A stretch of 64,000 bases of DNA from Candidatus Latescibacterota bacterium (GCA_965204725.1 OZ242005.1:3424001-3488000); one strand, 5' to 3'; shown: positions 11,316 through 39,758, counted from the stretch's first letter. Numbers and translations: made by a program. Notes: generated by a model from the sequence alone, not told the origin.

Positions 11316-11346
11316 GGGAATTATACCCAGCGAGGACTTGGACCCT

Positions 11347-11691
11347 ATGAATGCCATTGAAACCCAGATCAACAACGCTACCATTGAGGCCATAGCGCGA
11401 CTGATCGTCGAACGCTTTGAGCCGGAACAAGTCATTCTCTTCGGCAGTCACGCCTGCGGAGAGGGGGGATCGCATAGCGATGTGGACCTGCTGGTCGTGC
11501 TTCGCACCGGCACAGAAAAACTACCGCCCGGCAATCCAATCCGTCGAGCGATTGCCGAGCGTTTCGTCCTGCCCGTTGATGTCCTTATCCGCTCGCCGGA
11601 AGTTCTCGCCGAACAGCGCAATGACCCATATTCCTTGATGCACCAAGTGCTAAAAGAGGGAAAGGTATTGTATGAGCGGCACGTTGCCTGA
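11347..11691 (+). CDS. Minimal nucleotidyltransferase (MNT antitoxin family)
   Basis: VILFGSHACG...SDVDLLVV and C-terminal LKEGKVLYE. Confidence 0.85.
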   Translation: MNAIETQINNATIEAIARLIVERFEPEQVILFGSHACGEGGSHSDVDLLVVLRTGTEKLPPGNPIRRAIAERFVLPVDVLIRSPEVLAEQRNDPYSLMHQVLKEGKVLYERHVA

Positions 11692-11773
11692 ACGGGACTG
11701 GTTCGATAAGGCAAATCAAGATTTGGAGATGGCGCGTCGGGCGTTGGGTCCGAAAACACCTTCTCATCTATGA
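11672..11773 (+). pseudogene. Truncated HEPN-domain gene
   Basis: Overlaps the MNT stop; MSGTLPERDWFDKANQDLEMARRALG matches the HEPN first helix (W..KA..DL..A); stops after 33 aa. Confidence 0.7.
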
Positions 11774-11799
11774 CCTAATGAAAATGAAGAGAGGCTGTT

Positions 11800-12714: not shown

Positions 12715-12750
12715 TCCTGACGAGTCGCAATAACTTTAAGGAGGTGTAAG

Positions 12751-13140
12751 ATGAACGAACAGCTTCTTCATGGACACGAATTGTCGCTAGAGCTGGAATG
12801 GATGAGATGCTGGGGCGATGTCTGGTGCAATCTCAACCTTGTAAACCTAAACCATGAGTATTTCCACAAGGACGTCTCTGGCGTCTATATAATTTGGCAC
12901 GGAGGACCAGACCCCAAGGTGGTGTACGTCGGTCAGGGAAATATCAGGGATCGCATAGCCGAACACCGGAACGATCCAGAGATACAGCGATATGATTCTC
13001 TAGAGCTTTATGTCACTTGGGCACCAGTACCCAAGGAATACCAAGACGGTGCAGAAGCGTCCTTGGCTAAGCGATGGTCTCCAATAGTCGGCGAACGCTA
13101 TCCAGACGCCCTGCCCATAAAGGTAAACTCTCCGTGGTAG
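12751..13140 (+). CDS. Stand-alone GIY-YIG nuclease-domain protein
   Basis: AAGGAGG RBS; SGVYII...VYVGQG.IRDRIAEH. Confidence 0.75.
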   Translation: MNEQLLHGHELSLELEWMRCWGDVWCNLNLVNLNHEYFHKDVSGVYIIWHGGPDPKVVYVGQGNIRDRIAEHRNDPEIQRYDSLELYVTWAPVPKEYQDGAEASLAKRWSPIVGERYPDALPIKVNSPW

Positions 13141-21717: not shown

Positions 21718-22488
21718 CTAATTGGCCTTTTCCAATTCGGGCAGCAGCACGTCCTTGACCCAGCCAAAATCCGGGTCGATTTCAAGCGCCTTTTCAAAGG
21801 CCGCACGCGCCGACTCTAGCTCGCCTCGGTCTTGGTACGCGAGGCCGAGCCAAGCGTAAGTGCGGCTGTGTCCCCATGTCGGTTGGATGGGATCGGTTGG
21901 CTCTTCGCGGGCAAAGAGTTCGGCCGCGCGCTGGAATCCTTGCAGGCCCTTTTCCTTGCTTCCACCAAACATTTTTGGGGTATTGAAAGCACTGATGGCC
22001 GCGCTCAGCATCACGCGCGGATTGTCGGGGGCGAGCTGTAGGGCTTTTTGGGCAGCCTTTCCTGCTCTGGGGCCTAAGACCATGCTCTTGACCGGGTTGA
22101 GGGCGATCTGTCTTCCGTACGCACTCGACAGCAGAGAATAGGCTTCGGCGGCTTGAGGATCGAGCCGGGTGGCCTCTTTCAAATGCTCGACAGCGGTTTT
22201 GAGATGTTCAGAGACCGCGTCTTTGTTTTGTTCGCCCGCGGCGAATAGGCGATCGGCGATGCGGTAATCGGCCAAGGCGATGTAGTAGTGGCCCCACGCG
22301 GTCGAGCTGGTATCGGCCAAGGCGCGCTCGAATGTGGCCCGCGCCGCGTACATCGCATCGAGGTCGCTCGCGTTTTCACCGGCTTGCAGCATCTGTTTTC
22401 CACTGACGAGGAGGCTGTCGCCCGATTGCGCGCGAGTGGGATAGGCGATAGAGGCGACAAAGACGAGGGAGAGCAGCAAACGTTGCAT
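21718..22488 (-). CDS. Secreted TPR protein
   Basis: AGGAG RBS, signal peptide, TPR helices and a PKMFGGS motif. Confidence 0.8.
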   Translation of the reverse strand: MQRLLLSLVFVASIAYPTRAQSGDSLLVSGKQMLQAGENASDLDAMYAARATFERALADTSSTAWGHYYIALADYRIADRLFAAGEQNKDAVSEHLKTAVEHLKEATRLDPQAAEAYSLLSSAYGRQIALNPVKSMVLGPRAGKAAQKALQLAPDNPRVMLSAAISAFNTPKMFGGSKEKGLQGFQRAAELFAREEPTDPIQPTWGHSRTYAWLGLAYQDRGELESARAAFEKALEIDPDFGWVKDVLLPELEKAN

Positions 22489-22526: not shown

Positions 22527-24775
22527 TTAGTAGTTTAAGGAGAAACTGGCCCCGAAGTATATGGAGCGGCGGAAATTGGTGGTACGCGGTTGGCGTTGGG
22601 TATAGTCAATGCTGTAATCGTAGTCGAGCACGTTGGCGCGGTTGAGCAGGTTGCCGATGGCCAAGTAGAAAACGGCTTGGTGGCCGCTACCAAAGAACAG
22701 CACGTAACTCAACTGCCCATCCAGCTCTTGAAACGACGGCAGACGCTGTGAGCCGACCGGCCCTCTATGGGGAGGTAGTAATTTTGGTCCGCTACTCGAA
22801 TGGCATCGATAACAGGGGTAATGGGCCGACCGGTGGCGTGTCTTAGGGTCAGGCCGCCGCTGAGTGCGCCGACGAGTCGCGCTTTGGCGACCAAGGTCAG
22901 GTTGTGGGTAATGTCAAAGGGCGAAGGGGCCACTTCGTACTCCATATCCATCCCATTATAGCGCACCTGCTCTCGGCGCGAGCGCAGCAGACTGTAGGCC
23001 ATCCACCCGCTCAAGCGCGTATTGAGAAAAGCGCCGTACTTGAGGAACAAATCGGCCCCCGAGGCCCGGCCCTCGCCTGTGTTGGCAACATGGACCGGAG
23101 CAGGATGGTCAATGACGAGGTTGCGATACGGTTTGTAGTAGAGTTCGAGTCGAGCGGTGAAGTGGTCGCGCTCGTGGTGTAAGCCGCTTACCCAGTGCTG
23201 GGCGCGTTGGGCCTTCAGCTTGGGGTTGCCGCTGGTCGGATTGTACTCAAACGGCGCGGCGAATTGGTGATAGATGCCCCAAGCGAGCCGCACACTCGTG
23301 TACTTGGATAGCAGGTATCGCGCAGACAGGCGCGGATCTACGACAAAACGGCCGGATAGATCGTGGTGGTCGGTACGCACCCCAACTTGGGCGACGATGC
23401 GGCGCATGAGTCTAAAATCGGTTTCAACATAGGCCCCCGTGCGCCTAGTGCTATAGGAGGTATCGAACTCAAAGACCGCTGCCCCGGGGTCGAGAATCTC
23501 TCTCTGCGGAAAACTGCCCAGCAATCGGTTCGCACTGTGTTCGCTTTCGGCCCCCAAGCGCACAGCCTTATCAGTGCCGAGGGGACGTTCTAGATCGGTG
23601 CGAACTTTGAGGGTCCAGTCGCGGGGCGTCAAGTCTAGGTTGCCTAGCTGCTGCCGGGCATTGTAGCGGTTGAGCGAGGCACTGGTCTGGATGCTCCAAC
23701 TGGCCCACTCTTCTGTCCACTGGAGGTTGTGCAAATAGCTGTCCGTGCGGCTGCGATAAAGGCCATTGAAGGAAGGCTCGACGACTTTCACCCCGAGGCG
23801 GTTGTTGGAGTTGAAGTTGAATAGCTTGAGGCGTCCAGTCGGCGAGTATTGGTACACTAGGTTGAGATTGCCGTCGTACCCACGCGGGGTAGTGGTAAAG
23901 GTGTTGCGGTAACCATTGACGCGAAACAGGAGATCGGTAAAGCCGAGGTTGCCGGTGAAGCGCAGGCCGAGCTTGTCGTCTATCAGCGGCAGGTCCAGTG
24001 CAAGCGAGCCGGCCGCGAGGCCCAAACCGAGCGTATAGCGCCGTTGCTCGGGCATGTTTTGACTTTCCATGGACAGCACCGCAGAAAGCGCGTTGCCATA
24101 GCGCGCCGAGAACCCGCCGGTGGAAAAGACCGTGCCCTGTACCATAAAGGGAGAAATCGTGCCAAATACTCCGCCGGTGGGCGATTCGTATCTATAGGGA
24201 TGCACCACCGTGGCTTGATCGAGCAAAACAACGGTCTCGCTCACATCGCCCCCGCGCACAAAAAGACCGGCCCCGTCATCTACGGTGGCAACGCCGGGAA
24301 AGGTCTTGACCGCGAGAAAAATATCGGCCGAGGCCCCAGCCGTCGTCACTACGTCCAAAGGCGAGAGCGTGACGGTCTCATCCTCTCCGGTGGTATAAGT
24401 GCTCACTGAGACGACGGTTTCCCCGAGCTCGATGAGGGCGAACCTGAGTATTAAGCGAACCGTTGCGGTGTCGCCAGCGACTAAGTGCATGGTTTGCCGG
24501 GTAGGCTCAAAGCCGATGCAGGAGGCACTCAGGTCGTGTTGCCCGAGGTGGCGCGTGGAAAAGGCAAAGCGGCCGTCGCGCCCGGTTGTCGCGCCGGCTG
24601 TGGTCCCGACGATTTGTACATTGGCAAAGGCAACCGGCTGTCCAGTTTCATCGACGACCCGTCCCTGTACGAGGGCCACGCTCTCAGCAAAGGTTGGGCC
24701 GCCGTGCAGACCGACGAGCAGGAGAACCCAGAACAGGACCAGCGCGGCCTGTCGGGCGGTGCATCTTCTATCCAT
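22527..24775 (-). pseudogene. TonB-dependent receptor with a frameshift near 22760
   Basis: Carboxypeptidase-like N-domain and plug (LFVRGGD, GGFSARYGNALS). Adding one base near 22760 gives EGPVGSQRLPSFQELDGQLSY...GNLLNRAN...YFGASFSLNY, joining ORFs 22709..24775 and 22527..22712. Confidence 0.8.
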
Positions 24776-24781
24776 TGCGTC

Positions 24782-24990
24782 CTAATGGTCCAATCCCGGC
24801 AATAAGTGGTCTTTTACCCAGCCGTTGTTGGGGTTCACTTCAAGAGCTTTGACAAAGGCTTGCCGCGCCCCTTCGGGGTCGCCGGTCTCCTGACGCATGA
24901 TGCCGAGGTGGACACAGGCTTCGTCGTAGCCCCAAGAGGGTTGGAAGGGGTCGCGGATTTCCTCTTTGGCGAACAACTCAAGGGCTTGAT
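24782..24990 (-). pseudogene. 3' remnant of a TPR gene paralogous to 21718..22488
   Basis: QALELFAKEEIRDPFQPSWG...KALEVNPNNGWVKDHLLP aligns with RAAELFAREEPTDPIQPTWG...KALEIDPDFGWVKDVLLP; the 5' part is absent. Confidence 0.75.
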
Positions 24991-24998
24991 CCGGAAGA

Positions 24999-25700
24999 CT
25001 AGCCGATACTGCCTAGGGCAGCGGCGAAGGAAAGCCAAACAATCGTTATGATACCAACTCCAGCGTAGGCTTTGCGGCGATCAAACTGCCCGATAATAGA
25101 CAGGCCGAGACCAGTGATTACAACGCTCCAAACGACAAAGGGATCAATGAGAGACAATAAGTGCCCACTGAAGCTTCGGAGAGCCTCTTCGGAGAGGAAC
25201 ACCCCCAAGCCTATTTGCACTAGCGGTGTCTCTGTGGCCAATATTAGCAATGTCTTGACAATATGTTGGGGGATATTTATCAACCCCGCATAGACTACTA
25301 TGGTTAGGACTTGTCCGTAGGAGAGCAGGCCGCCTAGTAATTTACCCACCAGTAGGCAAAGCGCGGCAAATATAAAAATAAAAACGAAAAGCACAATAGG
25401 TGTAACGATCAGAGTACTAGCCTGCATGATGCCTTGGGTTCGGTATTGCTCCACTATCTTGCGCTCTTCGTCGGATATGCCCTGCATCCGTTGCTGCATG
25501 ACTTCTCGGTTGAATTCAGCCGTAAAGGGCAGGATAAGCACAGCGGCAATCGTGGCAACTACAACGTTCAAAGTAGCAGGCACAAGCCAGTCGGCAGCAC
25601 TGCGCTTGCGGGCGAGGGATTCAAAGGTTTCTCTCGGCGTGTAGAAGAGGCGAATCATGCGGTTGATGAGGCCGATTTCGGCTTGGGATGTAGGTTCCAT
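24999..25700 (-). CDS. Yip1-family membrane protein
   Basis: AAGGAGG RBS; LFYTPRETFESL N-terminal motif, about five TM helices, IDPF.VW motif. Confidence 0.8.
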   Translation of the reverse strand: MEPTSQAEIGLINRMIRLFYTPRETFESLARKRSAADWLVPATLNVVVATIAAVLILPFTAEFNREVMQQRMQGISDEERKIVEQYRTQGIMQASTLIVTPIVLFVFIFIFAALCLLVGKLLGGLLSYGQVLTIVVYAGLINIPQHIVKTLLILATETPLVQIGLGVFLSEEALRSFSGHLLSLIDPFVVWSVVITGLGLSIIGQFDRRKAYAGVGIITIVWLSFAAALGSIG

Positions 25701-25824
25701 GAAGACTCCTCCTTATTAAAAGAGATGAGTTTATCTCTATAACATCGTATTTACTAAAAACGTGTTTGACATATAGCAGACGAACCATAAACTAAAATGG
25801 GACCGAGGATTTTTCTAGTACCAA

Positions 25825-26628
25825 TTAAGGTTGAGCTGGTATAAAGGCTGATAGCTCCAGAGCCAAAACTGACATATTGCGTATAAAGTGGTATATAATG
25901 GAAGGATAAAGGGAGCGTGTTCCCTGATACAAAAAAAACGAAAGACTCTGTGTCATAAACGTAACGATAAATTCCCTTAGATGTTCCTCTGAAAACGGAG
26001 AGTAATGGTGGTAGCTGAAGATGAACGCGGTAATAGTGAAACCGAGAACGAACCCCAATCGATTTCTCAAAGCAGGGAATATCAGGCCGGTAAAATATGC
26101 CTCCTCTATAACAGGGGCAATCAGTAAAACGCGAACTGAGTGTGGAATGATAAGGAGAAATATAGTACGAGATTTTTCGTCCCAGTCGGCTTCCTCAGTC
26201 CAAGGTGTTAGAATGGGATTGGGATTTATTAAGTGGATATCAATTCCCTGGAGCTTCATGTAAAGGAAAAAGGCCAATACACTTACTCCGGATATCAACA
26301 ATAAAAAGTTAAATTTTAAAACGAACTTTTTTGATTCTCTGGGAATTTGAATGGACAATCCCAGTGTTTGGGTGTTTAGATCCTGTTTTTCTATTTTGGA
26401 GAATGCTACGACAACCAAAATAAGTAGAACATAAGGAATAGTACATAATAATACGAGAAGGTAGTCGCTCAAAGCGAATAGATTAAGTATAGTATCGACA
26501 GTATAGCGAAAGAAAAAGAACATAAAAATGGCTAGTAGAAAGGTAGAAAACATTCTACATCGTATATTTTCAAACTTTCTGGTAAATACGGAATAAATGT
26601 ATTGGTCCATTGTATGGATTTTTTTCAT
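25825..26628 (-). CDS. CPBP/Abi (CAAX protease-like) intramembrane metalloprotease
   Basis: APVIEEAYFTG, F..HH and SLYPSIIYHFIRN motifs; start uncertain (26628 follows AGGTG). Confidence 0.85.
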   Translation of the reverse strand: MKKIHTMDQYIYSVFTRKFENIRCRMFSTFLLAIFMFFFFRYTVDTILNLFALSDYLLVLLCTIPYVLLILVVVAFSKIEKQDLNTQTLGLSIQIPRESKKFVLKFNFLLLISGVSVLAFFLYMKLQGIDIHLINPNPILTPWTEEADWDEKSRTIFLLIIPHSVRVLLIAPVIEEAYFTGLIFPALRNRLGFVLGFTITAFIFSYHHYSPFSEEHLREFIVTFMTQSLSFFLYQGTRSLYPSIIYHFIRNMSVLALELSAFIPAQP

Positions 26629-26668
26629 GAATACACCTGCTTCTTCCATTAGTTGCTGGCGAAGACTT

Positions 26669-26704
26669 TGAGCTACCAGTCTCGATAAGGAGACTGGTAG
26701 CTCA
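26669..26704 (-). terminator. Perfect 15-bp hairpin downstream of the precursor gene (terminator or mRNA stabiliser)
   Basis: TGAGCTACCAGTCTC-gataag-GAGACTGGTAGCTCA; no U-tract on the minus (sense) strand. Confidence 0.7.
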
Positions 26705-26706
26705 TC

Positions 26707-27110
26707 CATTCACCATGTAGAGGTTGTGGGTTTCATCTAGGTTGGCTTCTTACTGATTTTGTTTGTTGTTTTTCAGGCTTCTTACGGATTGCGGGCGTAT
26801 GATGCTTCTCGGTCTTGCCTTGAAGACTCTAGGGTACCGTAGAGGGCCATCGCAGCAGCTGTGAGGGCGACGTCAGCCGCTAAAGCAATTCCTATTATTG
26901 CCCAAGGAATAGCTCCCCCTTTGATATCTCGAGCTTCAGAAGACGTAATAGGTTTTGAAACGATCTCACTGTTGCTCGGTGCGATACTATAGGCGCACAA
27001 ACCCAAGGCTGTCGCCAGAGCTGTTACACCTTTAGTTTTGATAAGTTTAGTCATGATGTTCTCCTTTCTTTAGGAAGAAGATGACAACCCTTACCTCCAC
27101 ATGGTGAATG
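26707..27110. repeat. 32-nt imperfect inverted repeat enclosing the precursor gene
   Basis: Arms 26707-26738 CATTCACCATGTAGAGGTTGTGGGTTTCATCT and 27079-27110 AGATGACAACCCTTACCTCCACATGGTGAATG. Confidence 0.85.
26782..27054 (-). CDS. Putative RiPP/bacteriocin precursor with double-glycine leader
   Basis: AAGGAG RBS; ITSSEARDIKGG fits LsxxELxxIxGG; hydrophobic 43-aa core AIPWAIIGIALAADVALTAAAMALYG...; adjacent to a C39 peptidase. Confidence 0.8.
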   Translation of the reverse strand: MTKLIKTKGVTALATALGLCAYSIAPSNSEIVSKPITSSEARDIKGGAIPWAIIGIALAADVALTAAAMALYGTLESSRQDREASYARNP

Positions 27111-27112
27111 TT

Positions 27113-27658
27113 TTATTTTTTTGTCAATATCAAAATCTCTCCTTTCCATATACGATTGAATGCCCCTTTTCCAATTCTGAGCCTGCCAATGGCTGGATCT
27201 CTCAAGATGACCTCACCATGTTCATCGATTCGGTCTAACACCGCAAAGTGATCATCCTCAATAAAGACCACTGCCGGAAGCGGTTTGCTTTCTAGGTCAT
27301 CTATATTTAGTCTCCAAGCTTCAGCATGTACTCCTTGACTTTCGGCGTATTTCATCAGGTCGAATAAGGAAGAACCTGTCTCGTCCAGTCTAATCATGTC
27401 TTCAATATCTGTAAGATCTTGGTCTATACCTAGGCTATCCAAAACCATTTTAAGAGCTACAGGACCACAATTCATTTTACGTGTCTGTAGAATGACTCCT
27501 TCTGTCCCTTCGTATTCCGCACCTTTCAACCATGCCGCCAAGTTACGGTATATGGTTTCACTCGTAATGGATACGGCGACTAATTGCAAGCTAGAAGCAA
27601 AAAAGATGACTAATACTATTGCCGCTCCAATCGTTAATTTACTTTTCCAAAGCGTCAT
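27113..27658 (-). CDS. Stand-alone C39 cysteine peptidase with N-terminal TM or signal segment
   Basis: LQTRKMNCGPVAL (Gln, Cys), DHFAVL (His), LRDPAIG (Asp); no ABC domains. Confidence 0.9.
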   Translation of the reverse strand: MTLWKSKLTIGAAIVLVIFFASSLQLVAVSITSETIYRNLAAWLKGAEYEGTEGVILQTRKMNCGPVALKMVLDSLGIDQDLTDIEDMIRLDETGSSLFDLMKYAESQGVHAEAWRLNIDDLESKPLPAVVFIEDDHFAVLDRIDEHGEVILRDPAIGRLRIGKGAFNRIWKGEILILTKK

Positions 27659-27676
27659 ACTTGATATAAATTATTA

Positions 27677-30226
27677 CTATCCTTTTGCGAAGGTATCGTC
27701 TGTGATATTACACTGTAGTGCTGGTTCCTGAACAGTCTTTATCTTTTCTTCGACTCGATTAGCATAGTCATACATATCTATTCCGACGAAAATTTTTGAT
27801 GCCATCATCCACAAAGCAATAGCTTTTGCTTTTGACTCTTTTTGGGCAGCCACATCTCCCATACCTGTATAGGCAAGTCCTTGTCCTAGTTCGTCACCTA
27901 TCCTTTTGCATATAGACAGAGCTCTACCATAACAAGCTTCAGCTTCACTCCATTGTCCTCTAAGCTGATGTATCTCGCCCAGACTAGCAAGTCCGTAGGC
28001 GGATCCCTTTTCGTCATCCTCAGCTTCGTATATCCCCAGTGCAGTCCTCTGCTCTTGGTACGCGTCTTCATATTGTCCGCATTGGATATATACGAGACTT
28101 AAAGTAGTTCGGGCTGTAGCAATAGCTTGCTGATTAGGCGAGTCTGGAGTAAGGCGTAGGTAATCGCATAAGAATTCCTTGGCTTTATCAAATTTTTTAC
28201 TATGAGCATACAATTTTCCGAGAGATAAATAGCACTCATTCACATCGGATGACATACCTATACGTTCAAATAGACCTATCGAGTGATGCAGGTAGGATTC
28301 TGCCAGAGGGAAATCTCCGCGATAGAAATGTACATTCGCTAGTATTTTATATGAGTACGCTTTTCCCTTTTCATCCGCCAAGCTTTGGTTAGCCTCTAAG
28401 GCAGCTTTGCCGTACTCTAGTGCTTTTTCCATATTTCCCATTAGAAGGTGTATCGAAGAAAATAATCCATAATGTAATGCCAATCCCTCTTTTCTATTCG
28501 CCTTTTTGTCTATATCAATAGCCTGTTCCAGTAGAGTATGTGCTTCGTAAATACGGCCTTGGATTTTTCTCAAATTTGCAAGCGAATTGTACTGGTTAGC
28601 AATCCCCTCGGAGTCTCCGATTTCTTTGTAAATAGCTAAAGATTCCTCGTAAAGTTTCTCTGCTGAATTCAAGTCGTCTTTTAGAAGATGCACAGTACCC
28701 AAGTTGCTAGTAACTAAGGCATAATCTTCTCGACAACTTATTTTTTTGTGAAGACTCTGTGCTTTTATATAAAAATCCTCAGCTTCGGCGAGATTTCCTT
28801 GTAGCTGCGTGATAAATCCTTTGCAGGTATATCCTACAGCTAGCTTCCTCTTACTTTTATCATCCCCAGTTTGTGAAAAAATTGATATGGCCTCATCATA
28901 GCATTGACTCGCCTTATCTAATTCGCCTTTCAGCTCGCAAACCTTACCTTGGGAGATCAGTATGTTAGCCAATCCTGTAGTTGTTCCACCCCGAAGCCGA
29001 TTAACTTCTTTGGCCAATTCGATTTGAGATAAGGCAGATTCTAGACGACCGTTCTGCCAGTGCTCGTCAGCAGAGGCTAAAATAATTTCCCATTCTTCAG
29101 GATCACCTTGCTGATCAACCCGTTTGGCTACCTCGCTTTCAGTAGGGCTAAATTTGCAATGAGTAGGAAGCTCGGTCTCTAGGTTGAGCTGTGGGAGCAC
29201 ATCCAAGACCTCTTGATACTCTTTCCTGTCTGTTGCAGAGATCGTTCGATAGATATGGTCAAATTCAATCAGACTGTCTATAACTGACTCCTCTGGAAGA
29301 AAAGGATTAGGCCACAGATGCGCCCACCAGAAGTGGATCAGACGCACCAAGGGATCGCTATGTTTGCAGGCTATGTACTCAACCGCGGCGTATCGCTTCA
29401 CGCTTTCTGCTTTTGCCTTCTCAGGATCGGAGAAATTATGAGGATGGTACAGGTGATAAGAAGAGGCTTGGACACTGATAAATTGTCCACCTGTCGCCCC
29501 TAGGCGGTAGCCAAGTTCCCACCCTTCACAGAAAGGTATGGCATCATCGAATCCCCCTACTTTTTCTAGCAGCTTTAACGGTATGGCCATATTGTGAGGG
29601 TATAACCCAATCCAGCCTAGGGCCGGTTCTGCGACAGTTTCGTAAAGATCGTGAAATTCTCTCTGTATAGTACGGACTTCTTCAAACGGATAGCCTCCTT
29701 CCACTGCTTTTTCGATAATACTATCGAACTCATTGCACACCATACTCTCTGTGACAATCATCTTATCTCGATGTAGAGCCAAGAACCGGCGCAGTGAATA
29801 AGGCAGTGAGGTATCGAAAGGTGAACCTGTCTGAGGATCTTGGAAATACTCTAGGTCGGGAAGGACATATTGACAGCCACATAATACTGATTTCTGACCA
29901 TTCTCTTTATAGGCTTCTAAGTAGCACTGGAGTAGTTCCGGGGCTGGTAGTGCATCTCCATCTAGGAAAACGACTAATGAACCGCATGCTCGCTCAACCC
30001 CTCTATTTCGTGCTCGACACCGGCCCTGATTCGTTTCAAAATATTCAACTTTGAGATTGTGCATCTTCAGTGATTCTAGCATTGCTCCAGTGCCGTCGGT
30101 AGAACCGTCGTCAACCACTATTACTTCAAAACGATCACTTGGAATATTCTGATTTTCTAAGCCACTTAACACGAGACGGAGGCGTTCTTTCTGGTTATAC
30201 GTGGCTACGATTACACTTGTATCCAT
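27677..30226 (-). CDS. Family 2 glycosyltransferase fused to a TPR array
   Basis: SVIVATYN, EVIVVDDGSTD, ARNRG, FLDGD, GGFDD, then many TPRs; ATG overlaps the upstream stop (TAATG). Confidence 0.9.
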   Translation of the reverse strand: MDTSVIVATYNQKERLRLVLSGLENQNIPSDRFEVIVVDDGSTDGTGAMLESLKMHNLKVEYFETNQGRCRARNRGVERACGSLVVFLDGDALPAPELLQCYLEAYKENGQKSVLCGCQYVLPDLEYFQDPQTGSPFDTSLPYSLRRFLALHRDKMIVTESMVCNEFDSIIEKAVEGGYPFEEVRTIQREFHDLYETVAEPALGWIGLYPHNMAIPLKLLEKVGGFDDAIPFCEGWELGYRLGATGGQFISVQASSYHLYHPHNFSDPEKAKAESVKRYAAVEYIACKHSDPLVRLIHFWWAHLWPNPFLPEESVIDSLIEFDHIYRTISATDRKEYQEVLDVLPQLNLETELPTHCKFSPTESEVAKRVDQQGDPEEWEIILASADEHWQNGRLESALSQIELAKEVNRLRGGTTTGLANILISQGKVCELKGELDKASQCYDEAISIFSQTGDDKSKRKLAVGYTCKGFITQLQGNLAEAEDFYIKAQSLHKKISCREDYALVTSNLGTVHLLKDDLNSAEKLYEESLAIYKEIGDSEGIANQYNSLANLRKIQGRIYEAHTLLEQAIDIDKKANRKEGLALHYGLFSSIHLLMGNMEKALEYGKAALEANQSLADEKGKAYSYKILANVHFYRGDFPLAESYLHHSIGLFERIGMSSDVNECYLSLGKLYAHSKKFDKAKEFLCDYLRLTPDSPNQQAIATARTTLSLVYIQCGQYEDAYQEQRTALGIYEAEDDEKGSAYGLASLGEIHQLRGQWSEAEACYGRALSICKRIGDELGQGLAYTGMGDVAAQKESKAKAIALWMMASKIFVGIDMYDYANRVEEKIKTVQEPALQCNITDDTFAKG

Positions 30227-32700
30227 TATATACACTCCACCCTCAGATGATATTGGCATTTCAGATTTGGTATATAGTTCCACCCATCTTTACCTTCTAT
30301 TAGGCAGGAGGGCAGTGTCTTAGCAGAATTGGAAAACATTAGTCGTTGGTTATCTAAGTGGCCAAAATAGTAAGAATCAAAAGATCGAGTATTTCGTTTT
30401 ATGTATGTTTTTAATTTAAGATCTTCGACATTGTATTCGTTTATAGAAACTTCGCCGATAGCCATACTGAGAAATTCAACGGGTATCCAGCCTGATTCTT
30501 CTAGATAAATTTCGGCCCACGTGTGGCCTACCATAGGCTCGTCTATACTTCTGTATTCGTACACCTGTCCAGAAATTGGAAATCCCAACAAGGTTCCACA
30601 TCTCTCTCTAGCAGGAATACCGACCATTCTACACAGAGCTATAAAGGTTCTCGCAAAGTGAATACAATTGCCACCGATGTTATTCAGCAAAATAGCCGAA
30701 CTATCGGCCAGACCCACCGCAGGTATCTTAGTCTTCCTGAATTTTTTAGTTCTGATTAGTTTGCTGTAGAAGGCCCAAGCCAGTTCTTTTTTATCGCAAG
30801 GCGCGGATGCTTCGAGTATCTCGGAGAGCACTTGCTCCAGTTCTGGCAGTTTGTCTAAGACCTCGTCGGTATATAAATACTTCGACCTCTCCCAGTCCGA
30901 GAGGGTGTGTTCGCCTCTACCTTCAGCATTATACTCGCTGACTTCAAGTTCGCAAGTATATGAAAAATTTGCCGAATTTGATTTTACAGTGAAGGGATAT
31001 GCATAGAAGAATCCAAACTTGCTGCGTAAACAGTATTTCATATTCTCTGGGAAACAGTCGATTAGACTAACGGCCTTTTGGTCTTCTGTCTCCAAAGGAT
31101 ATGGTATAAAAGCTCTTAACTGGTGATCCGGTTTTTCAGTGAGATGTATGTCGTAGGAGTAGGTCATTTTATAACGCTGGGTATGAGATTTTGAACGTAT
31201 GTTACCTGTTTCATCTATATCGAAAAAGACACGTCGTCTTTGATCGCAGGCCTTGTATTCAGCCTCAAAAAATCGAGCCTCTCTTTCGTATAGCCAGTTC
31301 CAAGAGTCTATTCTATCGAAGAAATACTGATTGCCCTGTCGCCAGTGAGGTATCCCTTTTTTAATACCTTGCCTTAGCATTTCACGCAGCGATTCAATTG
31401 ATAGGGTGGAAGGAGTAGTACCGTCGAGTTGCTGTAAGAATTCATTTTCACCTACCAGAAATTTAGGATCGTAACGGAGTGCCGTATAACGGTTTAAAAA
31501 ATAATCATCCACCCAGTCTGCTACTACGTCTTTTTCACACCATCGCTTCAATAAATTGGCAATAGAATCCAACTGAATCTCCATTTTATCCCAGACATCT
31601 AGAGTTCTCCCTAGTATTTGTGTAATATTGTGATAATTAAATCTATCCGGATCTATTTTCAGACCTAAACTAACCGCTTCGAGTCTATCGAGATGGAGAT
31701 CCTGATCTAAAGTGGTTGCTATACCGATAGGCAAAACTCCATGAAGTAAAGCACTATATAGGGTCTCTATATCTAAATCTCCAATTATTATATGTATTCT
31801 TTCCCATGGCGGATCTCTATAGATTTCATCGACAAACTCTATGTGGCTTTCAGGTCGCTTTACTCCTCGGGTAGATTCTACTAGTAAGCGATAAGGGATC
31901 TCCATCCCGGATGTATTCTGTCTCAGTATATCTTCTTTTAGAAGATTTCTGGGATCTTTTATATAGACGACAGGAAATGACTTATCCTGTTTGCGAAGCA
32001 TCTTTCGTCTGCCTCTTTTTTTATTGGTGGTCGGCAATAGAGGCCCTATATAGTGGAACCCATCAGCACCGAAATCTAGCGTGGGATATAGTTCGGGTAT
32101 ATCGGCAATTAGATAGTACTTCTTCTTCTTCTTAATTTCGCAGGCTTTATTTTTTAAGTACTCTGCAAACGTGTCTCTTGATGATAAGACAGATAGAGTC
32201 TGAGGAGGAATACTATGTCCTATTCGGTCGTATCCTTGAATTATTTCAACTTCGTCAATCCCTTCCAAGTGTGCTGCAATTGAAGCCGTTGGTTTCAAGG
32301 AATGGATAATCAGATCAGGCTTATACATCTCAATCAAAGACCGTTCGGATTTTACGCAAGAGTCGATCCATTCAGTATCGCATGATCTATAGCCCGATAG
32401 CTCAATCTGGTCTCTGTGGATCTCTAGAGGCAGCGTTTTAACACTGCATATTTCTTCGCCTTTTTGGGAACACTGATCCACACAAGGCCCATCTCCTGCT
32501 AGCCGAACCTCATAGCCTCGACAGCGTAACTGTTGGGCGATCTCACAAGCTCGCCTAGTATGAACAGCACTACAGCCATGGAATAGGACCATAATAGATA
32601 ACGCGCTACGGTCTAATATATTGGTTTCCGATGCTCTTCTAAGATTACTGCTCCACCACAATAACCTTGAGACTAATTTTTCTCTGATAGATGTAATCAA
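30226..32700 (-). CDS. GT-B (GT1-like) glycosyltransferase fused to a transglutaminase-like domain
   Basis: N-terminal H.RR...IAQQL..RGYEV, PDLII and ALLHGV.....LDQ....RLE motifs; C-terminal GNCIHFARTFIALCRMVGIPAR, GHTWAEIY, GWIPVE and YYFGHLD. Confidence 0.8.
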   Translation of the reverse strand: MITSIREKLVSRLLWWSSNLRRASETNILDRSALSIMVLFHGCSAVHTRRACEIAQQLRCRGYEVRLAGDGPCVDQCSQKGEEICSVKTLPLEIHRDQIELSGYRSCDTEWIDSCVKSERSLIEMYKPDLIIHSLKPTASIAAHLEGIDEVEIIQGYDRIGHSIPPQTLSVLSSRDTFAEYLKNKACEIKKKKKYYLIADIPELYPTLDFGADGFHYIGPLLPTTNKKRGRRKMLRKQDKSFPVVYIKDPRNLLKEDILRQNTSGMEIPYRLLVESTRGVKRPESHIEFVDEIYRDPPWERIHIIIGDLDIETLYSALLHGVLPIGIATTLDQDLHLDRLEAVSLGLKIDPDRFNYHNITQILGRTLDVWDKMEIQLDSIANLLKRWCEKDVVADWVDDYFLNRYTALRYDPKFLVGENEFLQQLDGTTPSTLSIESLREMLRQGIKKGIPHWRQGNQYFFDRIDSWNWLYEREARFFEAEYKACDQRRRVFFDIDETGNIRSKSHTQRYKMTYSYDIHLTEKPDHQLRAFIPYPLETEDQKAVSLIDCFPENMKYCLRSKFGFFYAYPFTVKSNSANFSYTCELEVSEYNAEGRGEHTLSDWERSKYLYTDEVLDKLPELEQVLSEILEASAPCDKKELAWAFYSKLIRTKKFRKTKIPAVGLADSSAILLNNIGGNCIHFARTFIALCRMVGIPARERCGTLLGFPISGQVYEYRSIDEPMVGHTWAEIYLEESGWIPVEFLSMAIGEVSINEYNVEDLKLKTYIKRNTRSFDSYYFGHLDNQRLMFSNSAKTLPSCLIEGKDGWNYIPNLKCQYHLRVECI

Positions 32701-32983
32701 TTGAAATATACCTCTGGTTGGATGATCTGACTAGAATTGGTGAAGCACAGCTAAGCTTCAGCGGGAGTAAAAGCGAAAAGTGTGCCGAGAAGTGCGTCCA
32801 GATAAACTGAGCCGTCGCTGGTATTCTGCTAAGTTCTTGGAATCAAGCAAGTTAGGTAATTCATATTTTTTATTGCCGCAGTTTCCGCCCACCTAGTCAA
32901 TACGCCAAAGCGTATCACCTCTGAAACACTACCGTTCCCAAGCGTTACAAAAAGTCGCCGCCTTGGCCCCTGTCGATGATTGA

Positions 32984-33012
32984 TTGACAACTGCATTTAT
33001 GTTCACTATATT
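32984..33012 (+). promoter_or_regulatory. Sigma-70 promoter candidate for parE-parC
   Basis: TTGACA-17 nt-TATATT. Confidence 0.65.
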
Positions 33013-33145
33013 AGACAGACGGAGAAATTAGCAGCCGCACCCAAGAGAGCGACTTCCCTGCTTCTGTTTTCTCCGCATTTTAACTCCCACTGTCCGCCGG
33101 TCGCGTCCCTCCCCCCTAAACGCGGCGCGTTCTACATTACCTCTT

Positions 33146-34978
33146 ATGGAAGCAATGGCTAAGACTGCAACCAATGGCCACGCCAACGGCAAGGCCACGT
33201 ACGACGAAAGCAAGATCAAGACCCTCTCTTCACTCGAGCACATCCGCCTGCGGACCGGCATGTACATCGGTCGGATCGGCTCGGGTGCTGACCCCGACGA
33301 CGGCATCTATATATTGCTCAAGGAGGTCATCGACAACGCAGTCGATGAGTTCATCATGGGATGTGGCAAGCAGGTCGACGTCGAGATCGACGAGGGGCGG
33401 GTCAAGGTCCGCGACTACGGCCGCGGCATTCCCCTCGGCAAAGTCGTCGAGTGCGTCTCGGTCATCAACACCGGCGCCAAGTACAACGACGATGTCTTCC
33501 AGTTCAGCGTAGGGCTCAACGGCGTCGGCACCAAGGCTGTCAACGCGCTTTCGGCCCATTTCGTCGTGCGCTCCTACCGCGACGGCCGGTGCGCCGAAGT
33601 GCTCTTTGAGCGCGGCGAGCTAAAGAAGCAAAAGAAGAGCCGAGCACCCAACGAGCCCGACGGCACGTACGTCGAGTTTTTGCCCGATCCCGTCATCTTT
33701 GGCGAATGCGCCTTCAACCACGAATTCGTCGAGCGCCGGATGTGGAACTACGCCTGCCTCAACCGAGGCTTGCGCCTGTACTTCAACCGCCAAAAATTCG
33801 AGTCCAAACAGGGCCTTTTCGACCTTCTCAAAAGCGAGGCCGGCGACTCGGTGCTCTACCCGCCCGCATACTACAAGGGCCAGTACCTCGAGTTTGCCTT
33901 CACGCACGTCGATAGCTACGGCGAGTCCTACCGCTCCTTTGTCAACGGCCAATACACGGCCGACGGCGGCACCCACCAGAGCGCGTTCCGCGAGGGGGTG
34001 CTCAAGGGGGTCAACGAATTTTACAAGAAAACCTTCAACGGCGTTGATGTCCGCGACGGGGCCTTTGGCGTCGTCGCCGTCAAGGTCAAGGAGCCGGTCT
34101 TTGAGTCGCAGACCAAAAACAAGCTGGGCAATACCGACGTCCGCAGTTGGATCGTCAACCAGACCCGCGAAGCCATCGTCGATTTCCTCCACAAAAATCG
34201 GGAGACCGCGCAAAAGCTCGAAGCGCGCATTATCCACAACGAGAAGTTGCGGAAGGAGCTGAACGCGGTTAAAAAGGAAGCCAAGGAGGCGGCGCGGCGC
34301 ATCGAGATCAAAATTCCCCAGCTCAAGGACTGCAAGTTTCACAAAGGCGACAAGAAGCGCGGCGAGGAGTCCATGATCTTCATCGCCGAGGGTCAATCGG
34401 CGGCTGGCTCCATCGTCTCCTCACGCGACCCGGAGACCCAAGCCATCTTCACGCTCAAGGGCAAGCCGCAAAACCTCTGCGGCAAGACCCGCGCCTCCAT
34501 CTACAAAAACGAAGAGCTATACAACATGATGATGGCACTGGGCATTGAAGAGGACGTGGAAAATCTGCGCTACGACCACGTCGTCTTGGCTACAGACGCC
34601 GATGAAGACGGCTTCCACATCCGCACCTTGCTCATGACTTTCTTCCTCACGTACTTCGAGGAGCTGGTCACCAGCGGCCACCTCTACATTTTGGAGACTC
34701 CGCTCTTCCGGGTCCGCAACAGGCGACAGACCCTCTATTGCTACGACCAGCGCGAGCGCGAGCGCGCCGAGGGCCGGCTCAAGGGCAACATCGAGGTCAC
34801 TCGCTTCAAGGGCTTGGGCGAAATCTCCCCCAAAGAATTCGGGCAATTTATCAACGGCGACATGCGCTTGGTCAAGGTCGCCGTGCGCTCGCTAGACACC
34901 GTGCCGCAGACCCTCTCCTTTTACATGGGCAGAAATACCCCGGAACGCCGCGACTACATCATGGAGCACTTAGTCTAA
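33146..34978 (+). CDS. parE: DNA topoisomerase IV subunit B
   Basis: EVIDNAVDE, DYGRGIP, GLNGVG, EGQSA, DADEDG, RFKGLGE; start could be 33155. Confidence 0.9.
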   Translation: MEAMAKTATNGHANGKATYDESKIKTLSSLEHIRLRTGMYIGRIGSGADPDDGIYILLKEVIDNAVDEFIMGCGKQVDVEIDEGRVKVRDYGRGIPLGKVVECVSVINTGAKYNDDVFQFSVGLNGVGTKAVNALSAHFVVRSYRDGRCAEVLFERGELKKQKKSRAPNEPDGTYVEFLPDPVIFGECAFNHEFVERRMWNYACLNRGLRLYFNRQKFESKQGLFDLLKSEAGDSVLYPPAYYKGQYLEFAFTHVDSYGESYRSFVNGQYTADGGTHQSAFREGVLKGVNEFYKKTFNGVDVRDGAFGVVAVKVKEPVFESQTKNKLGNTDVRSWIVNQTREAIVDFLHKNRETAQKLEARIIHNEKLRKELNAVKKEAKEAARRIEIKIPQLKDCKFHKGDKKRGEESMIFIAEGQSAAGSIVSSRDPETQAIFTLKGKPQNLCGKTRASIYKNEELYNMMMALGIEEDVENLRYDHVVLATDADEDGFHIRTLLMTFFLTYFEELVTSGHLYILETPLFRVRNRRQTLYCYDQRERERAEGRLKGNIEVTRFKGLGEISPKEFGQFINGDMRLVKVAVRSLDTVPQTLSFYMGRNTPERRDYIMEHLV

Positions 34979-36967: not shown

Positions 36968-38014
36968 ATGGAGAACTTGACAGTGCCTAATCCTAAAACA
37001 GTAGAGGAACTGCAGGAGAAAGCTGCAATTTATTGGCCATCTGAAATCGCCAAGCAAGAGAAGAGTTCTAGTATTATTCCATTGCTCCTTAAAACACAAG
37101 ACAGTTTTATAAGCGTACTCCATCTTGCATCTAAAGACCCTTATGATTGGACTAAAATTTTAGATTTTGTTGAAGATCTCTATCCAAACCTTTTTCTAAA
37201 ACATCTTTGTATTTTATCCGACATCGGCGGAGAAAACTTAAAACGCTTTGCAGCAGACCTTCCGAATAAATTTAAGTGTGAGGATTTCAGATTTAACTTT
37301 CGTGGCAAAAATTACGATTCTAAGATGGAATCTCTTTTTTCTGGCAAGAAATGGAGTAATTCCAGCCTAGGACTTGATGGAGAAGGTCTCCAAAGACGTT
37401 TTGGCCTTACAGACGCCATTATTGATGTAAGTACCCTGATATTATTTGGCAGTTTGTCAACTAATGACTTCTTGCCAGAAGAAGTCGAAGATAAATGTAT
37501 TATCGGTTCAATGCTCGGCGACAGGTCGAGATTGGAAAAATACATTAAAGAACGATATATTTGGGTCAGTCGAATTACTGGAGGAGCAACGTCCAATAGA
37601 ATGGGACATCTCGCTCAGAATTATGTAAAAGAGCGATTGGCCCAATATCTCCCAAGTTGGAATTTTTCACAAACTACGATTCCAGGCGTCAGTCAAAATG
37701 AGGGTAGAACAGATATAAAATTTGACATCGTAGGAAAAAGCCCTAGTGGTAATTATTGGGGAATTGAAGTAAGTTTCCAATTTACGACAAACAGTGTAGT
37801 AGAAAGAAAAGCCAAACTTGCCCCTGATAGACAAAGGCTTCTTCGTGAAAAAGGGCATAAAATTGCGTATGTAGTTGATGGTGCCGGTAATTTTGAACGT
37901 CGATCTTTTGTGAAGGACCTAATCGACTACAGCGACTGTATTATCAACTTTAGCGACAACGATATTAGACGTCTTGCAGAAACTATGGAAGGAGACGATG
38001 AAAATGGCTCATAG
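36968..38014 (+). CDS. Type II restriction endonuclease, BanI/HgiCI-like
   Basis: NLFLKHL, ERYIWVSRITGGA, FD...IEVSFQFTTNSVVERK and AYVVDGAGNF resemble R.BanI as I recall it; AT-rich; overlaps a methyltransferase gene. Confidence 0.8.
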   Translation: MENLTVPNPKTVEELQEKAAIYWPSEIAKQEKSSSIIPLLLKTQDSFISVLHLASKDPYDWTKILDFVEDLYPNLFLKHLCILSDIGGENLKRFAADLPNKFKCEDFRFNFRGKNYDSKMESLFSGKKWSNSSLGLDGEGLQRRFGLTDAIIDVSTLILFGSLSTNDFLPEEVEDKCIIGSMLGDRSRLEKYIKERYIWVSRITGGATSNRMGHLAQNYVKERLAQYLPSWNFSQTTIPGVSQNEGRTDIKFDIVGKSPSGNYWGIEVSFQFTTNSVVERKAKLAPDRQRLLREKGHKIAYVVDGAGNFERRSFVKDLIDYSDCIINFSDNDIRRLAETMEGDDENGS

Positions 38015-39758
38015 GAGTGAAAACTGCAAACCTCTAGATATATCAACAAGGGCATTTGCAGATTTTCAAAAATTATCGTCAAAGTCATCACGTCCAGATG
38101 TATGGCTTTTCCATTTGACTACAGAAGTCGATTTCGACGATAAAGTTTCTATGGAATTTTTTAATCAAGATTTTGACGGTTTTCTTGAAAAATTGCCTGA
38201 AGAAAGTACAATTTGTTTTTTAACAAACCCTCACACAGCTTGCTATGTAATAGAAAAACTTCAGAACCGCGTCAATTTCAAACTTTGGATTGCTGTCAAA
38301 CGGAAGAAAAAGATACTGAGATTGGACGCTTTACCAGATGACCATATTGCTCTTTTAGTTTTTACCCGTTACAAAGATTCTTTAAGACACAACAAGACTC
38401 AAATAGAATATACGTACTGTCCTGCCTGCAAGAAAACAACAAAGGACTACGGCGGCAAGAAACATATTTATAGCCCCTATGGGACGCTTATGTCTGATAT
38501 TTGGCGAGACATTTCTTATGATAATGACGCAGCACCAAGAGCTATTCTGAGTAGGCTAAAGGACCTCTTTGGACACGAACCTTATCGCGAACTGATTTAC
38601 TGCGATGTCAGGAACTTTCTTACATGTTCCAACAAGAGAAAATTCCACTCTTCAAATGGAATAATTAATAACCCCGGCGAGAGTCGTTTACTTAATGGAG
38701 ATTGTTTAGATGTCATTAAAACTATACCTGAAAATTCTGTAGATTTTATTTTTGCTGATCCTCCATATAATATAAAAAAGAAATATGATAACTGGAATGA
38801 CGCCCAAGATATTAGTAATTACTTTTCATGGTGTGACCAATGGATAGCTGAATCAGCTAGAGTCTTAAAGCCCGGTCGGACTTTTGCAATTATAAATATC
38901 CCCCTCTGGATCGTCAGGCATTTTTCGTTCGCGAAAAGCATTTTAGACTACCAAGATTGGATAGTTTGGGAGGGATTGAGCTTACCCGTCAGAAAAATTA
39001 TGCCGGCACACTACGGAATAATTTGCTTTAGTAAAGGTCGGCCAATCGAAATTGCCAATCACGAGAAGAAAGCCAGTTGGACAACTCCCCAAGACTTCAT
39101 GAGCCTCAAACCATGGTATTGTGTTAGAACCTCTTGTATCAAGAAGAGAAATATAAACAAAATTACCGACCGGCAGCCGATTGGAAATTTGTGGTGGGAC
39201 ATCCATAGACTAAAACACAATTCAAAAAGAGTTGATCACCCATGTCAACTACCTCCATCATTGATGAGACGACTTATCCATACCTTTACCAAAGTAGGAG
39301 ATCTCGTTTTAGATCCTTTTAATGGTGCCGGTACAACAACCTTAACATCGGAAATGCTTGGAAGAAAATTTATTGGAATTGAACTGTCAAATAAATATCA
39401 TGCAATTGCCGAACAGAGACATTTAGAGCTGCAAAAAGGGAGGGATCCGTTTGCAAAAAATGGCACTACTCCAAAAGCAAAGAATAGCAGAGTTGCAAGA
39501 CTACAAAAACAGAAGTATGAAGTACCCAAAAAAACACTACAGATCGAAGTCAAGAAGATCGCGATCAAACTGGAACGCAGGCCCACTAGAGAAGATATTA
39601 TTAGACTCAGCAAATACCCAATTCGTTATTTTGACGAATACTTCATCGACTGGGGAGAGGTGTGTAGTGCCGTTGGCGACAAAGGAATGACTGAAAACTT
39701 CTCTCAATCCATTAGCAATCAACCAGATGATCAACAGATGGAACTCTCTTTTAGATAG
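38004..39758 (+). CDS. Beta-class N4/N6 DNA methyltransferase with N- and C-terminal extra domains
   Basis: FADPPYN (motif IV) precedes HPCQLP and VLDPFNGAGTT (motif I). Confidence 0.9.
   Translation: MAHRSENCKPLDISTRAFADFQKLSSKSSRPDVWLFHLTTEVDFDDKVSMEFFNQDFDGFLEKLPEESTICFLTNPHTACYVIEKLQNRVNFKLWIAVKRKKKILRLDALPDDHIALLVFTRYKDSLRHNKTQIEYTYCPACKKTTKDYGGKKHIYSPYGTLMSDIWRDISYDNDAAPRAILSRLKDLFGHEPYRELIYCDVRNFLTCSNKRKFHSSNGIINNPGESRLLNGDCLDVIKTIPENSVDFIFADPPYNIKKKYDNWNDAQDISNYFSWCDQWIAESARVLKPGRTFAIINIPLWIVRHFSFAKSILDYQDWIVWEGLSLPVRKIMPAHYGIICFSKGRPIEIANHEKKASWTTPQDFMSLKPWYCVRTSCIKKRNINKITDRQPIGNLWWDIHRLKHNSKRVDHPCQLPPSLMRRLIHTFTKVGDLVLDPFNGAGTTTLTSEMLGRKFIGIELSNKYHAIAEQRHLELQKGRDPFAKNGTTPKAKNSRVARLQKQKYEVPKKTLQIEVKKIAIKLERRPTREDIIRLSKYPIRYFDEYFIDWGEVCSAVGDKGMTENFSQSISNQPDDQQMELSFR

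Follow-up and report, generated by a model that had tools for sequence, protein, structure and literature searches.

What does a six-gene, AT-rich island of an uncultured bacterial lineage make, when two large glycosyltransferase (GT) genes stand at the head of its operon and a small double-glycine peptide follows them? The island lies in a window of 64,000 nucleotides (the whole stretch of DNA that was analyzed) from Candidatus Latescibacterota bacterium (GCA_965204725.1, OZ242005.1:3424001-3488000), and a preliminary description of this DNA had proposed that it encodes a ribosomally made, post-translationally modified peptide (RiPP) system of an unrecognized class. Six open reading frames (ORFs), all on the minus strand, fill positions 24999 to 32700. 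In the order of transcription, they encode a fusion of a GT-B glycosyltransferase with a transglutaminase-like domain, a GT2 glycosyltransferase joined to tetratricopeptide repeats (GT2-TPR), a stand-alone C39 peptidase, a 90-amino-acid (aa) peptide, a CPBP intramembrane protease homologue, and a Yip1 protein (Table 1). We found that the island is a composite operon with two modules of separate origin, and it may make a new kind of sugar-decorated peptide. The best overall explanation, to which we assign a probability of about 0.45, is that the peptide is exported and cut by the C39 peptidase, with the enzymes of the second module glycosylating it before export.

The gene order, orientation, and AT-rich setting given in the preliminary description all held. 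The GC fraction of the six-gene stretch (25001-33000) is 0.40 to 0.47, against about 0.60 in the flanks on both sides, and the island is the longest among the 55 AT-rich islands of this 5.4-Mb genome. The fusion gene ends in a stop codon that overlaps the GT2-TPR start codon ATG (TAATG), a coupling described earlier and read directly in the sequence here, and a gap of 18 nt separates the GT2-TPR gene from the C39 gene. All six genes recur in identical order in loci L007 and L008, adjoining parE/parC in both, and their order is also preserved on a short contig (L006); a further locus, L017, has the first four genes and then reaches its contig end. The ratio of nonsynonymous to synonymous substitution rates (dN/dS) is 0.13 to 0.37 for all six genes (0.13 to 0.27 for the peptide). 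Together with the recurring gene order, these ratios indicate that the cluster is more than a chance assembly: the operon is retained in at least four other genomes under purifying selection.

The fusion protein comprises a GT1-family GT-B region (residues ~30-400), a beta-sandwich (~430-600), and a transglutaminase-like core (660-745). The core was recognized in Pfam as Transglut_core (PF01841, residues 668-742, E = 4.9e-13, 49.7 bits against a cut-off of 23). The GT-B half of the island copy had no Pfam match and only a weak NCBIfam match (TIGR04516, E = 2.4e-3); the paralogues of the fusion match EryCIII-like_C and UDPGT in Pfam. A model of the whole fusion built from 17 homologues (predicted local distance difference test score [pLDDT], 81) matched SpnP, OleD, GtfA/D, EryCIII, and YjiC in Foldseek (E values of ~1e-14 to 1e-12, probability 1.00), and by this predicted fold the N-terminal half is a GT1-family GT-B domain. 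The two-part architecture of the preliminary description was thereby borne out, its GT-B half through fold and paralogue matches. A second model, of residues 400-824 (41 sequences, pLDDT 93), was closest to 3isr, a putative cysteine protease from Cytophaga (E = 1.8e-12), and also matched the periplasmic domain of TgpA (6g49; E = 2.6e-7) and TglA. An alignment of 17 sequences shows C679 and H726 to be invariant, as are the corresponding residues in 41 sequences, which points to a catalytically active transglutaminase-like domain; at the third catalytic position the consensus is Glu, the usual residue being Asp. Residues 400-824 thus share their fold, and a PF01841 core with Cys and His, with COG1305-type proteins such as 3isr and TgpA; however, the island domain is predicted to be cytoplasmic, is fused to a glycosyltransferase, and always has a GT2 gene next to it. 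A search of the ESM Atlas with the C-terminal half of the fusion returned "transglutaminase family" clusters only. Two other readings of this domain were rejected: a PNGase-like enzyme is ruled out by the fold matches, in which 3isr, TgpA, and TglA come out on top, and a lasso-peptide B2 (C96) protein finds neither a PF13471 match nor a lasso B protein among the fold matches.

In the GT2-TPR protein, the GT2 domain occupies residues 1-350 and the repeats occupy residues ~390-849 (Glycos_transf_2 at 23-150 of the longer, GTG-initiated frame, E = 1.3e-26; TPR_12, E = 1.1e-45). The D89-G-D91 sequence of its DxD region is invariant in alignments of 12 and 11 sequences. When a profile of the GT2 domain was compared with the PDB, the best solved relative was the chondroitin synthase K4CP (E = 3.2e-33). 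A structure prediction of GT2-TPR in complex with the peptide scored 0.00, a value that counts neither for nor against an interaction.

The peptide gene is preceded by the ribosome-binding site (RBS) AAGGAG. Its product begins with a signal-like N terminus (residues 1-23), which on direct reading consists of a basic stretch, about 13 hydrophobic residues, and then A-Y-S, and which looks like a Sec-type signal. A pro-region ending in SKPITSSEARDIKGG47 follows, and the 43-aa core (48-90) is made up of a hydrophobic helix with conserved P50 and D61, then a polar tail, with no Cys. In an alignment of 15 sequences, P35, E40 (-8), A41 (-7), and G46 (-2) are invariant, I36 (-12), K45, P50, and D61 are nearly so, and position 47 holds G (12 sequences), A (2), or S (1). 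The double-glycine rule calls for a GG, GA, or GS site with hydrophobic residues at -4, -7, and -12 (PMC10885120), and the motif of the peptide, with I36 (-12), E (-8), A41 (-7), and I44 (-4) before G46-G47, satisfies it. The indels of the alignment concentrate directly after GG, as expected at the new N terminus of a mature peptide. The double-glycine motif of the preliminary description is therefore sound, but the 47 residues that it took as a plain leader start with a signal-peptide-like stretch. Neither Pfam nor NCBIfam has a family for the 90-aa peptide, and every score in the ESM Atlas was below 0.9. A lipoprotein reading was rejected, since the residue before C20 is Leu and this Cys is absent in the g12 relatives (8-sequence alignment).

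The C39 protein matches PF03412 with an E value of 5.5e-28 (97.9 bits against a cut-off of 22), and its residues Q58, C64, H137, and D154 fall on the catalytic positions of LahT150 (PDB 6mpz) when the two are aligned. It stands alone, with no ABC (ATP-binding cassette) part, as had been described; a hydrophobic N-terminal anchor (residues 8-31) has to be added to that description. PF03412 occurs only once in this 94%-complete genome, in the island. With a single PF03412 domain and no ABC part, there is no peptidase-containing ABC transporter (PCAT), and export must take another route. A precedent is FapD, from the Fap amyloid system of Pseudomonas, a C39 peptidase that is active in the periplasm on Sec-exported partners (PMC5557850). 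Like the island enzyme, FapD is a stand-alone C39 protein with an N-terminal export or anchor sequence; however, the island has no fap neighbors, and its canonical GG motif resides in the adjacent small peptide. The FapD equivalog model in NCBIfam (NF058616) scored the C39 protein at 41.4 bits, against a cut-off of 330. From this precedent and from the anchored C39 protein and the signal-like start of the peptide, we infer that the peptide is exported by Sec and then cleaved outside the cytoplasm, in the periplasm.

Close relatives of the peptide were found in 7 of 76 genomes of the taxonomic family, and a profile of the peptide identified it in 7 of the 168 phylum genomes, with one marginal match in addition. 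C39 and peptide occur together in all seven genomes that have either. Word-index searches of proteins retrieved close relatives only, 16 for the fusion, 9 for the peptide, and 15 for the C39 protein, all of them metagenomic.

The two modules are separable. Module 1 comprises the membrane-anchored C39 peptidase, the 90-aa peptide, and the CPBP protein, together with Yip1 in this genus; module 2, a multi-copy family, comprises the GT-B/transglutaminase-like fusion, then GT2 and TPR. A tblastn search found five fusion genes in this genome, each followed by GT2, with C39, peptide, and CPBP confined to the island. Fusion matches are present in 55 of the 168 phylum genomes; full-length fusions are found almost only in family f1 (38 of 75 genomes), at up to five per genome. 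We compared 28 fusion loci, namely, the window, 3 loci from a contig scan or G114, the 4 paralogues of this genome, and 20 loci selected as full-length fusion matches on long contigs. GT2 lies directly downstream of the fusion on the same strand in 28 of 28, and a TPR homologue is present in 23. The GT2-TPR fusion itself is limited to the peptide-linked clade; elsewhere, GT2 is ~350 aa long and TPR is a separate protein of ~330 to 420 aa.

In a quick maximum-likelihood tree of the 28 fusion sequences, the peptide-linked fusions form one clade (support of 100 in the Shimodaira-Hasegawa-like approximate likelihood ratio test), sister to one paralogue group (99), and the peptide-linked enzymes are distinct and long branched. 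Identities to L008, L007, and L017 run parallel from gene to gene (88, 79, and 57% for the fusion; 91, 89, and 56% for GT2-TPR; 90, 88, and 59% for C39; 91, 81, and 56% for the peptide), and the synonymous divergence (dS) is similar across all six genes. Collectively, the single clade, the parallel identities, and the similar dS indicate that module 2 was recruited once and that the island was then inherited and selected as a unit. This co-inheritance demonstrates a single recruitment; it falls short of demonstrating a shared substrate. G114 has the GT pair with C39 and peptide where three other genomes (G111, G112, and G115) have a GT-less version in a corresponding neighborhood. The GT-less loci are at native GC.

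We consider it very probable that the island is a mobile operon linking a unit of double-glycine peptide, C39, and CPBP with one member of a multi-copy GT-B/transglutaminase/GT2/TPR family, that C39 cuts after Gly47, and that this is not a glycocin cluster. In the mechanism that we propose, module 1 would make a small, membrane-active, bacteriocin-like peptide. The 90-aa product would leave the cytoplasm through its Sec-type signal-like N terminus, and the anchored C39 enzyme, with its catalytic domain most likely periplasmic as in FapD (PMC5557850), would cut after Gly46-Gly47 and release a 43-aa peptide in which a single hydrophobic helix is followed by a polar tail. CPBP and the YknW-like Yip1 would either shield the producing cell or have a part in processing. 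Module 2, with three catalytic domains always found together, would be a cytoplasmic tailoring set that was recruited once to module 1; it would most likely add sugars to the peptide before export, and the transglutaminase-like domain would perhaps carry out an acyl transfer or a Gln-directed reaction. The polar tail contains Gln in 12 of 12 peptides of the closer group versus 1 of 3 in the GT-less group, a difference confounded by descent (GT-gene linkage was read directly in five loci). That the module 2 enzymes modify the peptide is, taken by itself, a tentative proposal, and its basis is operon structure and co-inheritance only.

Several observations weigh against peptide modification. The preliminary description had itself named homologues of the two large enzymes without any precursor or C39 gene as a finding that would refute it, and such homologues are the majority: the enzyme pair is present in all 28 loci, four pairs being in this genome, and only 4 of the loci have C39 or the peptide, leaving 24 with neither. 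Genomes G139, G144, and G131 carry three, four, and five fusion copies, respectively, and no PF03412 domain. Conversely, three of the seven peptide genomes (the GT-less G111, G112, and G115) have C39, peptide, and CPBP with no GT gene at all. By Pfam, the island has no sugar-nucleotide gene, flippase, or recognizable peptide-binding element, including RRE/PqqD. If Sec export and periplasmic cleavage are correct, the cytoplasmic enzymes could act before export only, and the topology of C39 and peptide was itself derived from charge and hydrophobicity rules alone. As to the unrecognized RiPP class of the preliminary description, its gene content and double-glycine motif were right and no described class matches it, but its enzymes are not bound to the precursor. 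The peptide-linked clade, the tight operon, the co-divergence, and the wider enzyme family in nonribosomal peptide synthetase (NRPS) clusters (see below) keep the peptide-modification reading open.

The same distribution favors an alternative in which the two modules are neighbors only, with one mobile island and one transcript in common but separate substrates. The GT set would then decorate a glycolipid, an envelope glycoconjugate, or other exported proteins, and the peptide would be an unmodified, class-II-like double-glycine peptide. GT1-family folds such as that of the fusion mostly glycosylate small molecules. Moreover, in every other setting of the GT module within this lineage, exported products are involved. 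The first consists of ABC-2 permeases, an ABC ATPase, a TolC-like OEP, DUF1573, and a family of secreted 280-aa proteins, in many cases alongside a histidine kinase and a sigma-54 activator; the second consists of FG-GAP proteins with a type IX secretion system (T9SS) tail, DUF4159, an A24-like peptidase, and redoxins; and the third contains a MacB-like permease. All three would suit the export of a product other than a peptide. However, the peptide-linked enzymes stand apart as a long-branched clade of their own, the only one with a GT2-TPR fusion, they have been kept intact alongside the peptide across 57 to 94% divergence, and the island holds no other candidate acceptor or exporter. We regard mere adjacency as possible but doubtful.

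Some of the loci in these settings have further features. At L011 (G000:C1:366931-378000) and at L023, L026, L031, L033, and L036, the GT module lies beside an A24 (prepilin-peptidase-like) membrane protein; L011 and its relatives also encode two TlpA-like redoxins, a 196-aa membrane protein, and T9SS-tail FG-GAP proteins, and part of the L011 locus is AT-rich as well (GC, 0.43). At L009, L012, and their relatives (G000:C1:2104001-2154000), a family of secreted ~280-aa proteins with the common motif QYGGF directly after the signal peptide adjoins the GT module. Two GT modules are 28 kb apart there, in a region rich in ABC-2 permeases with DUF3526.

Beyond this lineage, the enzymes were found with a different class of product. 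An exhaustive HMMER search with the fusion gave 1,095 matches, full length in about a dozen clusters, and many proteins of ~730 aa matched only fusion residues ~430-800. Among 15 matches examined by Pfam, five were GT2-transglutaminase proteins, one was a 1,204-aa GT2-transglutaminase-GT-B protein, and one had a GT4-type N terminus; the GT-B, transglutaminase-like, and GT2 domains are thus joined to each other in fusions of several orders. When metagenomes were scanned with a 730-aa-class profile, 80 loci were kept, and the 19 with a match over most of the query were analyzed. Fourteen of these are of the GT2-transglutaminase type, with NRPS or adenylation neighbors in 10 of the 14 and a separate or NRPS-fused GT-B in 8 (condensation, adenylation, and thiolation [C, A, and T] domains were confirmed by Pfam in four loci, and BLAST comparison with these four served to class the others). 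The fusion form is present in five marine loci, with GT2 in four of them, a TPR gene in five, and a kinase in four (Pfam on L054 only). The transglutaminase homologues AdmF (andrimid) and CtaJ (closthioamide) are amide-forming catalysts in nonribosomal peptide pathways (PMC7898593). They resemble the island domain in having a Cys-His transglutaminase fold, and the wider family of the domain likewise occurs among NRPS genes; the island domain differs in its GT-B fusion and its 3isr/TgpA-like two-domain architecture, and its surroundings in this genome contain neither a carrier protein nor an NRPS gene. The module therefore belongs with peptide-like natural products and is not specific to ribosomal peptides. 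The trio and its TPR partner could even be a portable peptide-tailoring system that acts on nonribosomal products in soil bacteria and on ribosomal, Sec-exported peptides or proteins here; the island would then make a RiPP of a new class, a GG-leader peptide that is glycosylated and Gln-acylated or cross-linked in the cytoplasm and matured by C39 outside, a picture that we consider unlikely.

The NRPS clusters with ~740-aa GT2-transglutaminase proteins (L038-L053) also encode a fatty-acyl-AMP-ligase-like enzyme, a DegT aminotransferase, a penicillin amidase, and an MFS pump. At L046, GT-B is fused to a C-A-T module in a protein of 1,498 aa.

A full-text literature search found no paper on a cluster joining a transglutaminase-like domain, a glycosyltransferase, and a C39/double-glycine peptide, and as far as this search shows, the GT-B/transglutaminase-like/GT2 trio is undescribed. 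A study of sponge Latescibacterota metagenome-assembled genomes reports generic "RiPP-like" regions and uses neither the word transglutaminase nor the word bacteriocin (PMC12993501).

The membrane proteins of module 1 bear on what the peptide does. The CPBP domain of the preliminary description was confirmed (PF02517, E = 5.9e-13, 49.4 bits against a cut-off of 22.4), but the protein probably starts later, at the methionine of MKKIH, giving 266 aa and matching its orthologues. Residues E174, E175, H246, and N250 are invariant in 9 sequences. Thr takes the place of the motif 1 (EExxxR) Arg in each of the 7 aligned downstream copies (4 GT-linked and 3 GT-less), and the His of motif 2 (FxxxH) is missing in one relative; EE and HxxxN are kept in all 9. 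The Yip1 assignment likewise stood (PF04893, E = 8.2e-17, 62 bits against a cut-off of 28.6), and the protein scored 71.5 bits with the YknW family NF052650, under the cut-off of 110; its gene is confined to the genus g1 form of the island. Toxin-plus-immunity loci typically combine a double-glycine peptide with CPBP/Abi and YknW-like genes. Among the closest known systems are the class II double-glycine bacteriocin loci with Abi/CPBP immunity genes, such as pln and blp in lactic acid bacteria and pneumococci. The island shares with them a GG-type leader with conserved positions -12, -8, -7, and -4, a C39 domain with Q, C, H, and D, an adjacent CPBP/Abi membrane protein, and a hydrophobic helical core. 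Unlike in those loci, the island C39 domain is not fused to an ABC protein and sits behind an N-terminal membrane anchor, the 47-aa leader starts with a signal-peptide-like stretch, two large GT genes head the operon, and the host belongs to a Gram-negative-type, uncultured lineage. We infer that the peptide is antimicrobial or membrane-active.

Alternatively, the peptide could be a non-antimicrobial membrane or signaling peptide that is matured by C39 and CPBP, following the logic of AgrD maturation or CPBP-type C-terminal sorting, with a regulatory or surface role in a host-associated life style. In G111 and G112, a second CPBP gene lies upstream, and the C39-peptide pair is thus placed between two of them; the catalytic motifs of CPBP are retained, the core layout of GG, hydrophobic helix, and charged tail resembles C-terminal sorting signals, and each genome has a single copy of the peptide, with little core diversity within the genus. 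The CPBP protein also has weak NCBIfam matches to MrtS and MrtJ (E values of 1e-7 and 5e-4), but these are far under the cut-offs, one substrate per genome was found compared with many in sorting systems, the island has no receptor or kinase gene, and its combination of genes is the one typical of the toxin-plus-immunity loci mentioned above. A signaling role is distinctly unlikely.

In a glycocin-like RiPP of the kind represented by sublancin or glycocin F, the core would be glycosylated by a SunS-type GT2, and export would remove the leader. In favor of this reading, the island combines in one locus a GT2 whose C-terminal part consists of helical repeats, a GG leader, and C39 activity, as in the SunA/SunS/SunT/BdbA/BdbB clusters, but the reading fails, being contradicted on four defining features: SunS (7msp and 7msn) ranks only 45th and 46th of 52 PDB matches to the GT2 profile (E = 1.1e-3 and 1.7e-3), the core has no Cys, the six proteins have no oxidoreductase, redoxin, or thioredoxin domain by Pfam, and there is no PCAT in the genome and no ABC gene among the six, the C39 domain sitting behind a membrane anchor. 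In addition, the island has a GT1-type GT-B fused to a transglutaminase-like domain that glycocin clusters lack. The Cys-free core and the missing oxidoreductase and exporter had been pointed out in the preliminary description. Its suggestion of kinship between GT2-TPR and SunS proved unspecific: K4CP is far ahead, the rank of SunS reflects shared GT2 membership only, and in a single-sequence phmmer search with GT2, SunS was absent at E <= 1e-3.

If the module 2 enzymes do act on the peptide, the island would make a ribosomal peptide that is glycosylated by enzymes unrelated to the glycocin transferases and whose leader is removed on the far side of the membrane, both of which would be new for RiPP biology. 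Independently of this, the analysis defines an uncharacterized three-domain enzyme set (GT-B, transglutaminase-like, and GT2), of which a single genome of this uncultured lineage can have up to five copies. In the lineage the set always accompanies loci for exported products, and in other bacteria it goes with NRPS clusters; it provides a concrete, testable handle on the role of COG1305-type bacterial transglutaminase-like proteins.

Table 1. Coordinates of the island genes and adjoining features in the window
Feature	Position	Strand	Remarks
GT-B/transglutaminase-like fusion	30226..32700	-	824 aa, TTG start
GT2-TPR	27677..30226	-	849 aa from ATG
Stand-alone C39 peptidase	27113..27658	-	181 aa, PF03412
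Pre-pro-peptide	26782..27054	-	90 aa, no family
CPBP (Rce1-like/Abi) intramembrane protease homologue	25825..26709	-	PF02517; likely start gives 266 aa
Yip1/YknW-like membrane protein	24999..25700	-	PF04893
Noncoding leader 5' of the fusion gene	32701..32946	-	~250 nt, 4-locus alignment
Gene fragment at island border	24782..24976	-	Truncated copy of the C terminus of the TPR protein at 21718-22488

The leader upstream of the fusion gene is conserved in four loci, as are the RBS and the TTG start of the fusion. Because the differences between the loci include 1-nt indels, a coding frame is ruled out. In an RNAalifold prediction, an upstream stretch of the leader pairs with the RBS region, with compensatory change in 3 of 56 pairs (weak), and a helix that sequesters the fusion RBS is possible. 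Across 24000-34000, there was no Rfam match at E <= 0.1. Promoter and terminator scans did not rise above shuffled sequences (16 versus 15.4 and 8 versus 7.4), and PADLOC returned only generic TPR models for the six island proteins. The 64-aa fragment at the downstream edge is 52% identical over 63 aa to the product of the nearby TPR gene (BLASTP, E = 2e-22), and this truncated copy is likely an insertion scar.

A paralogue of Yip1 with 55% identity is encoded at G000:C1:2909739-2910464, in a locus of the ABC/membrane-fusion/FtsX type. Its neighbors are two ABC-type proteins of ~740 aa, a 430-aa protein, and two FtsX-like permeases, a yknWXYZ-like layout as judged by length and N-terminal sequence alone.

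Two further AT-rich islands are present in the window. One (10032-13140; GC, 0.44 to 0.50) encodes a Pol-beta-type nucleotidyltransferase, an ion-channel protein, and three ORFs without a family or with sub-threshold DUF3450 only. The other (36968-39758; GC, 0.37 to 0.39) lies on the far side of parE/parC, where genes for a BanI-type restriction enzyme (PF24447, E = 3e-110) and for an N6/N4 DNA methylase are found; at the matching site of L007 there are ORFs of 344 and 584 aa that share BLAST clusters with these restriction-modification genes.

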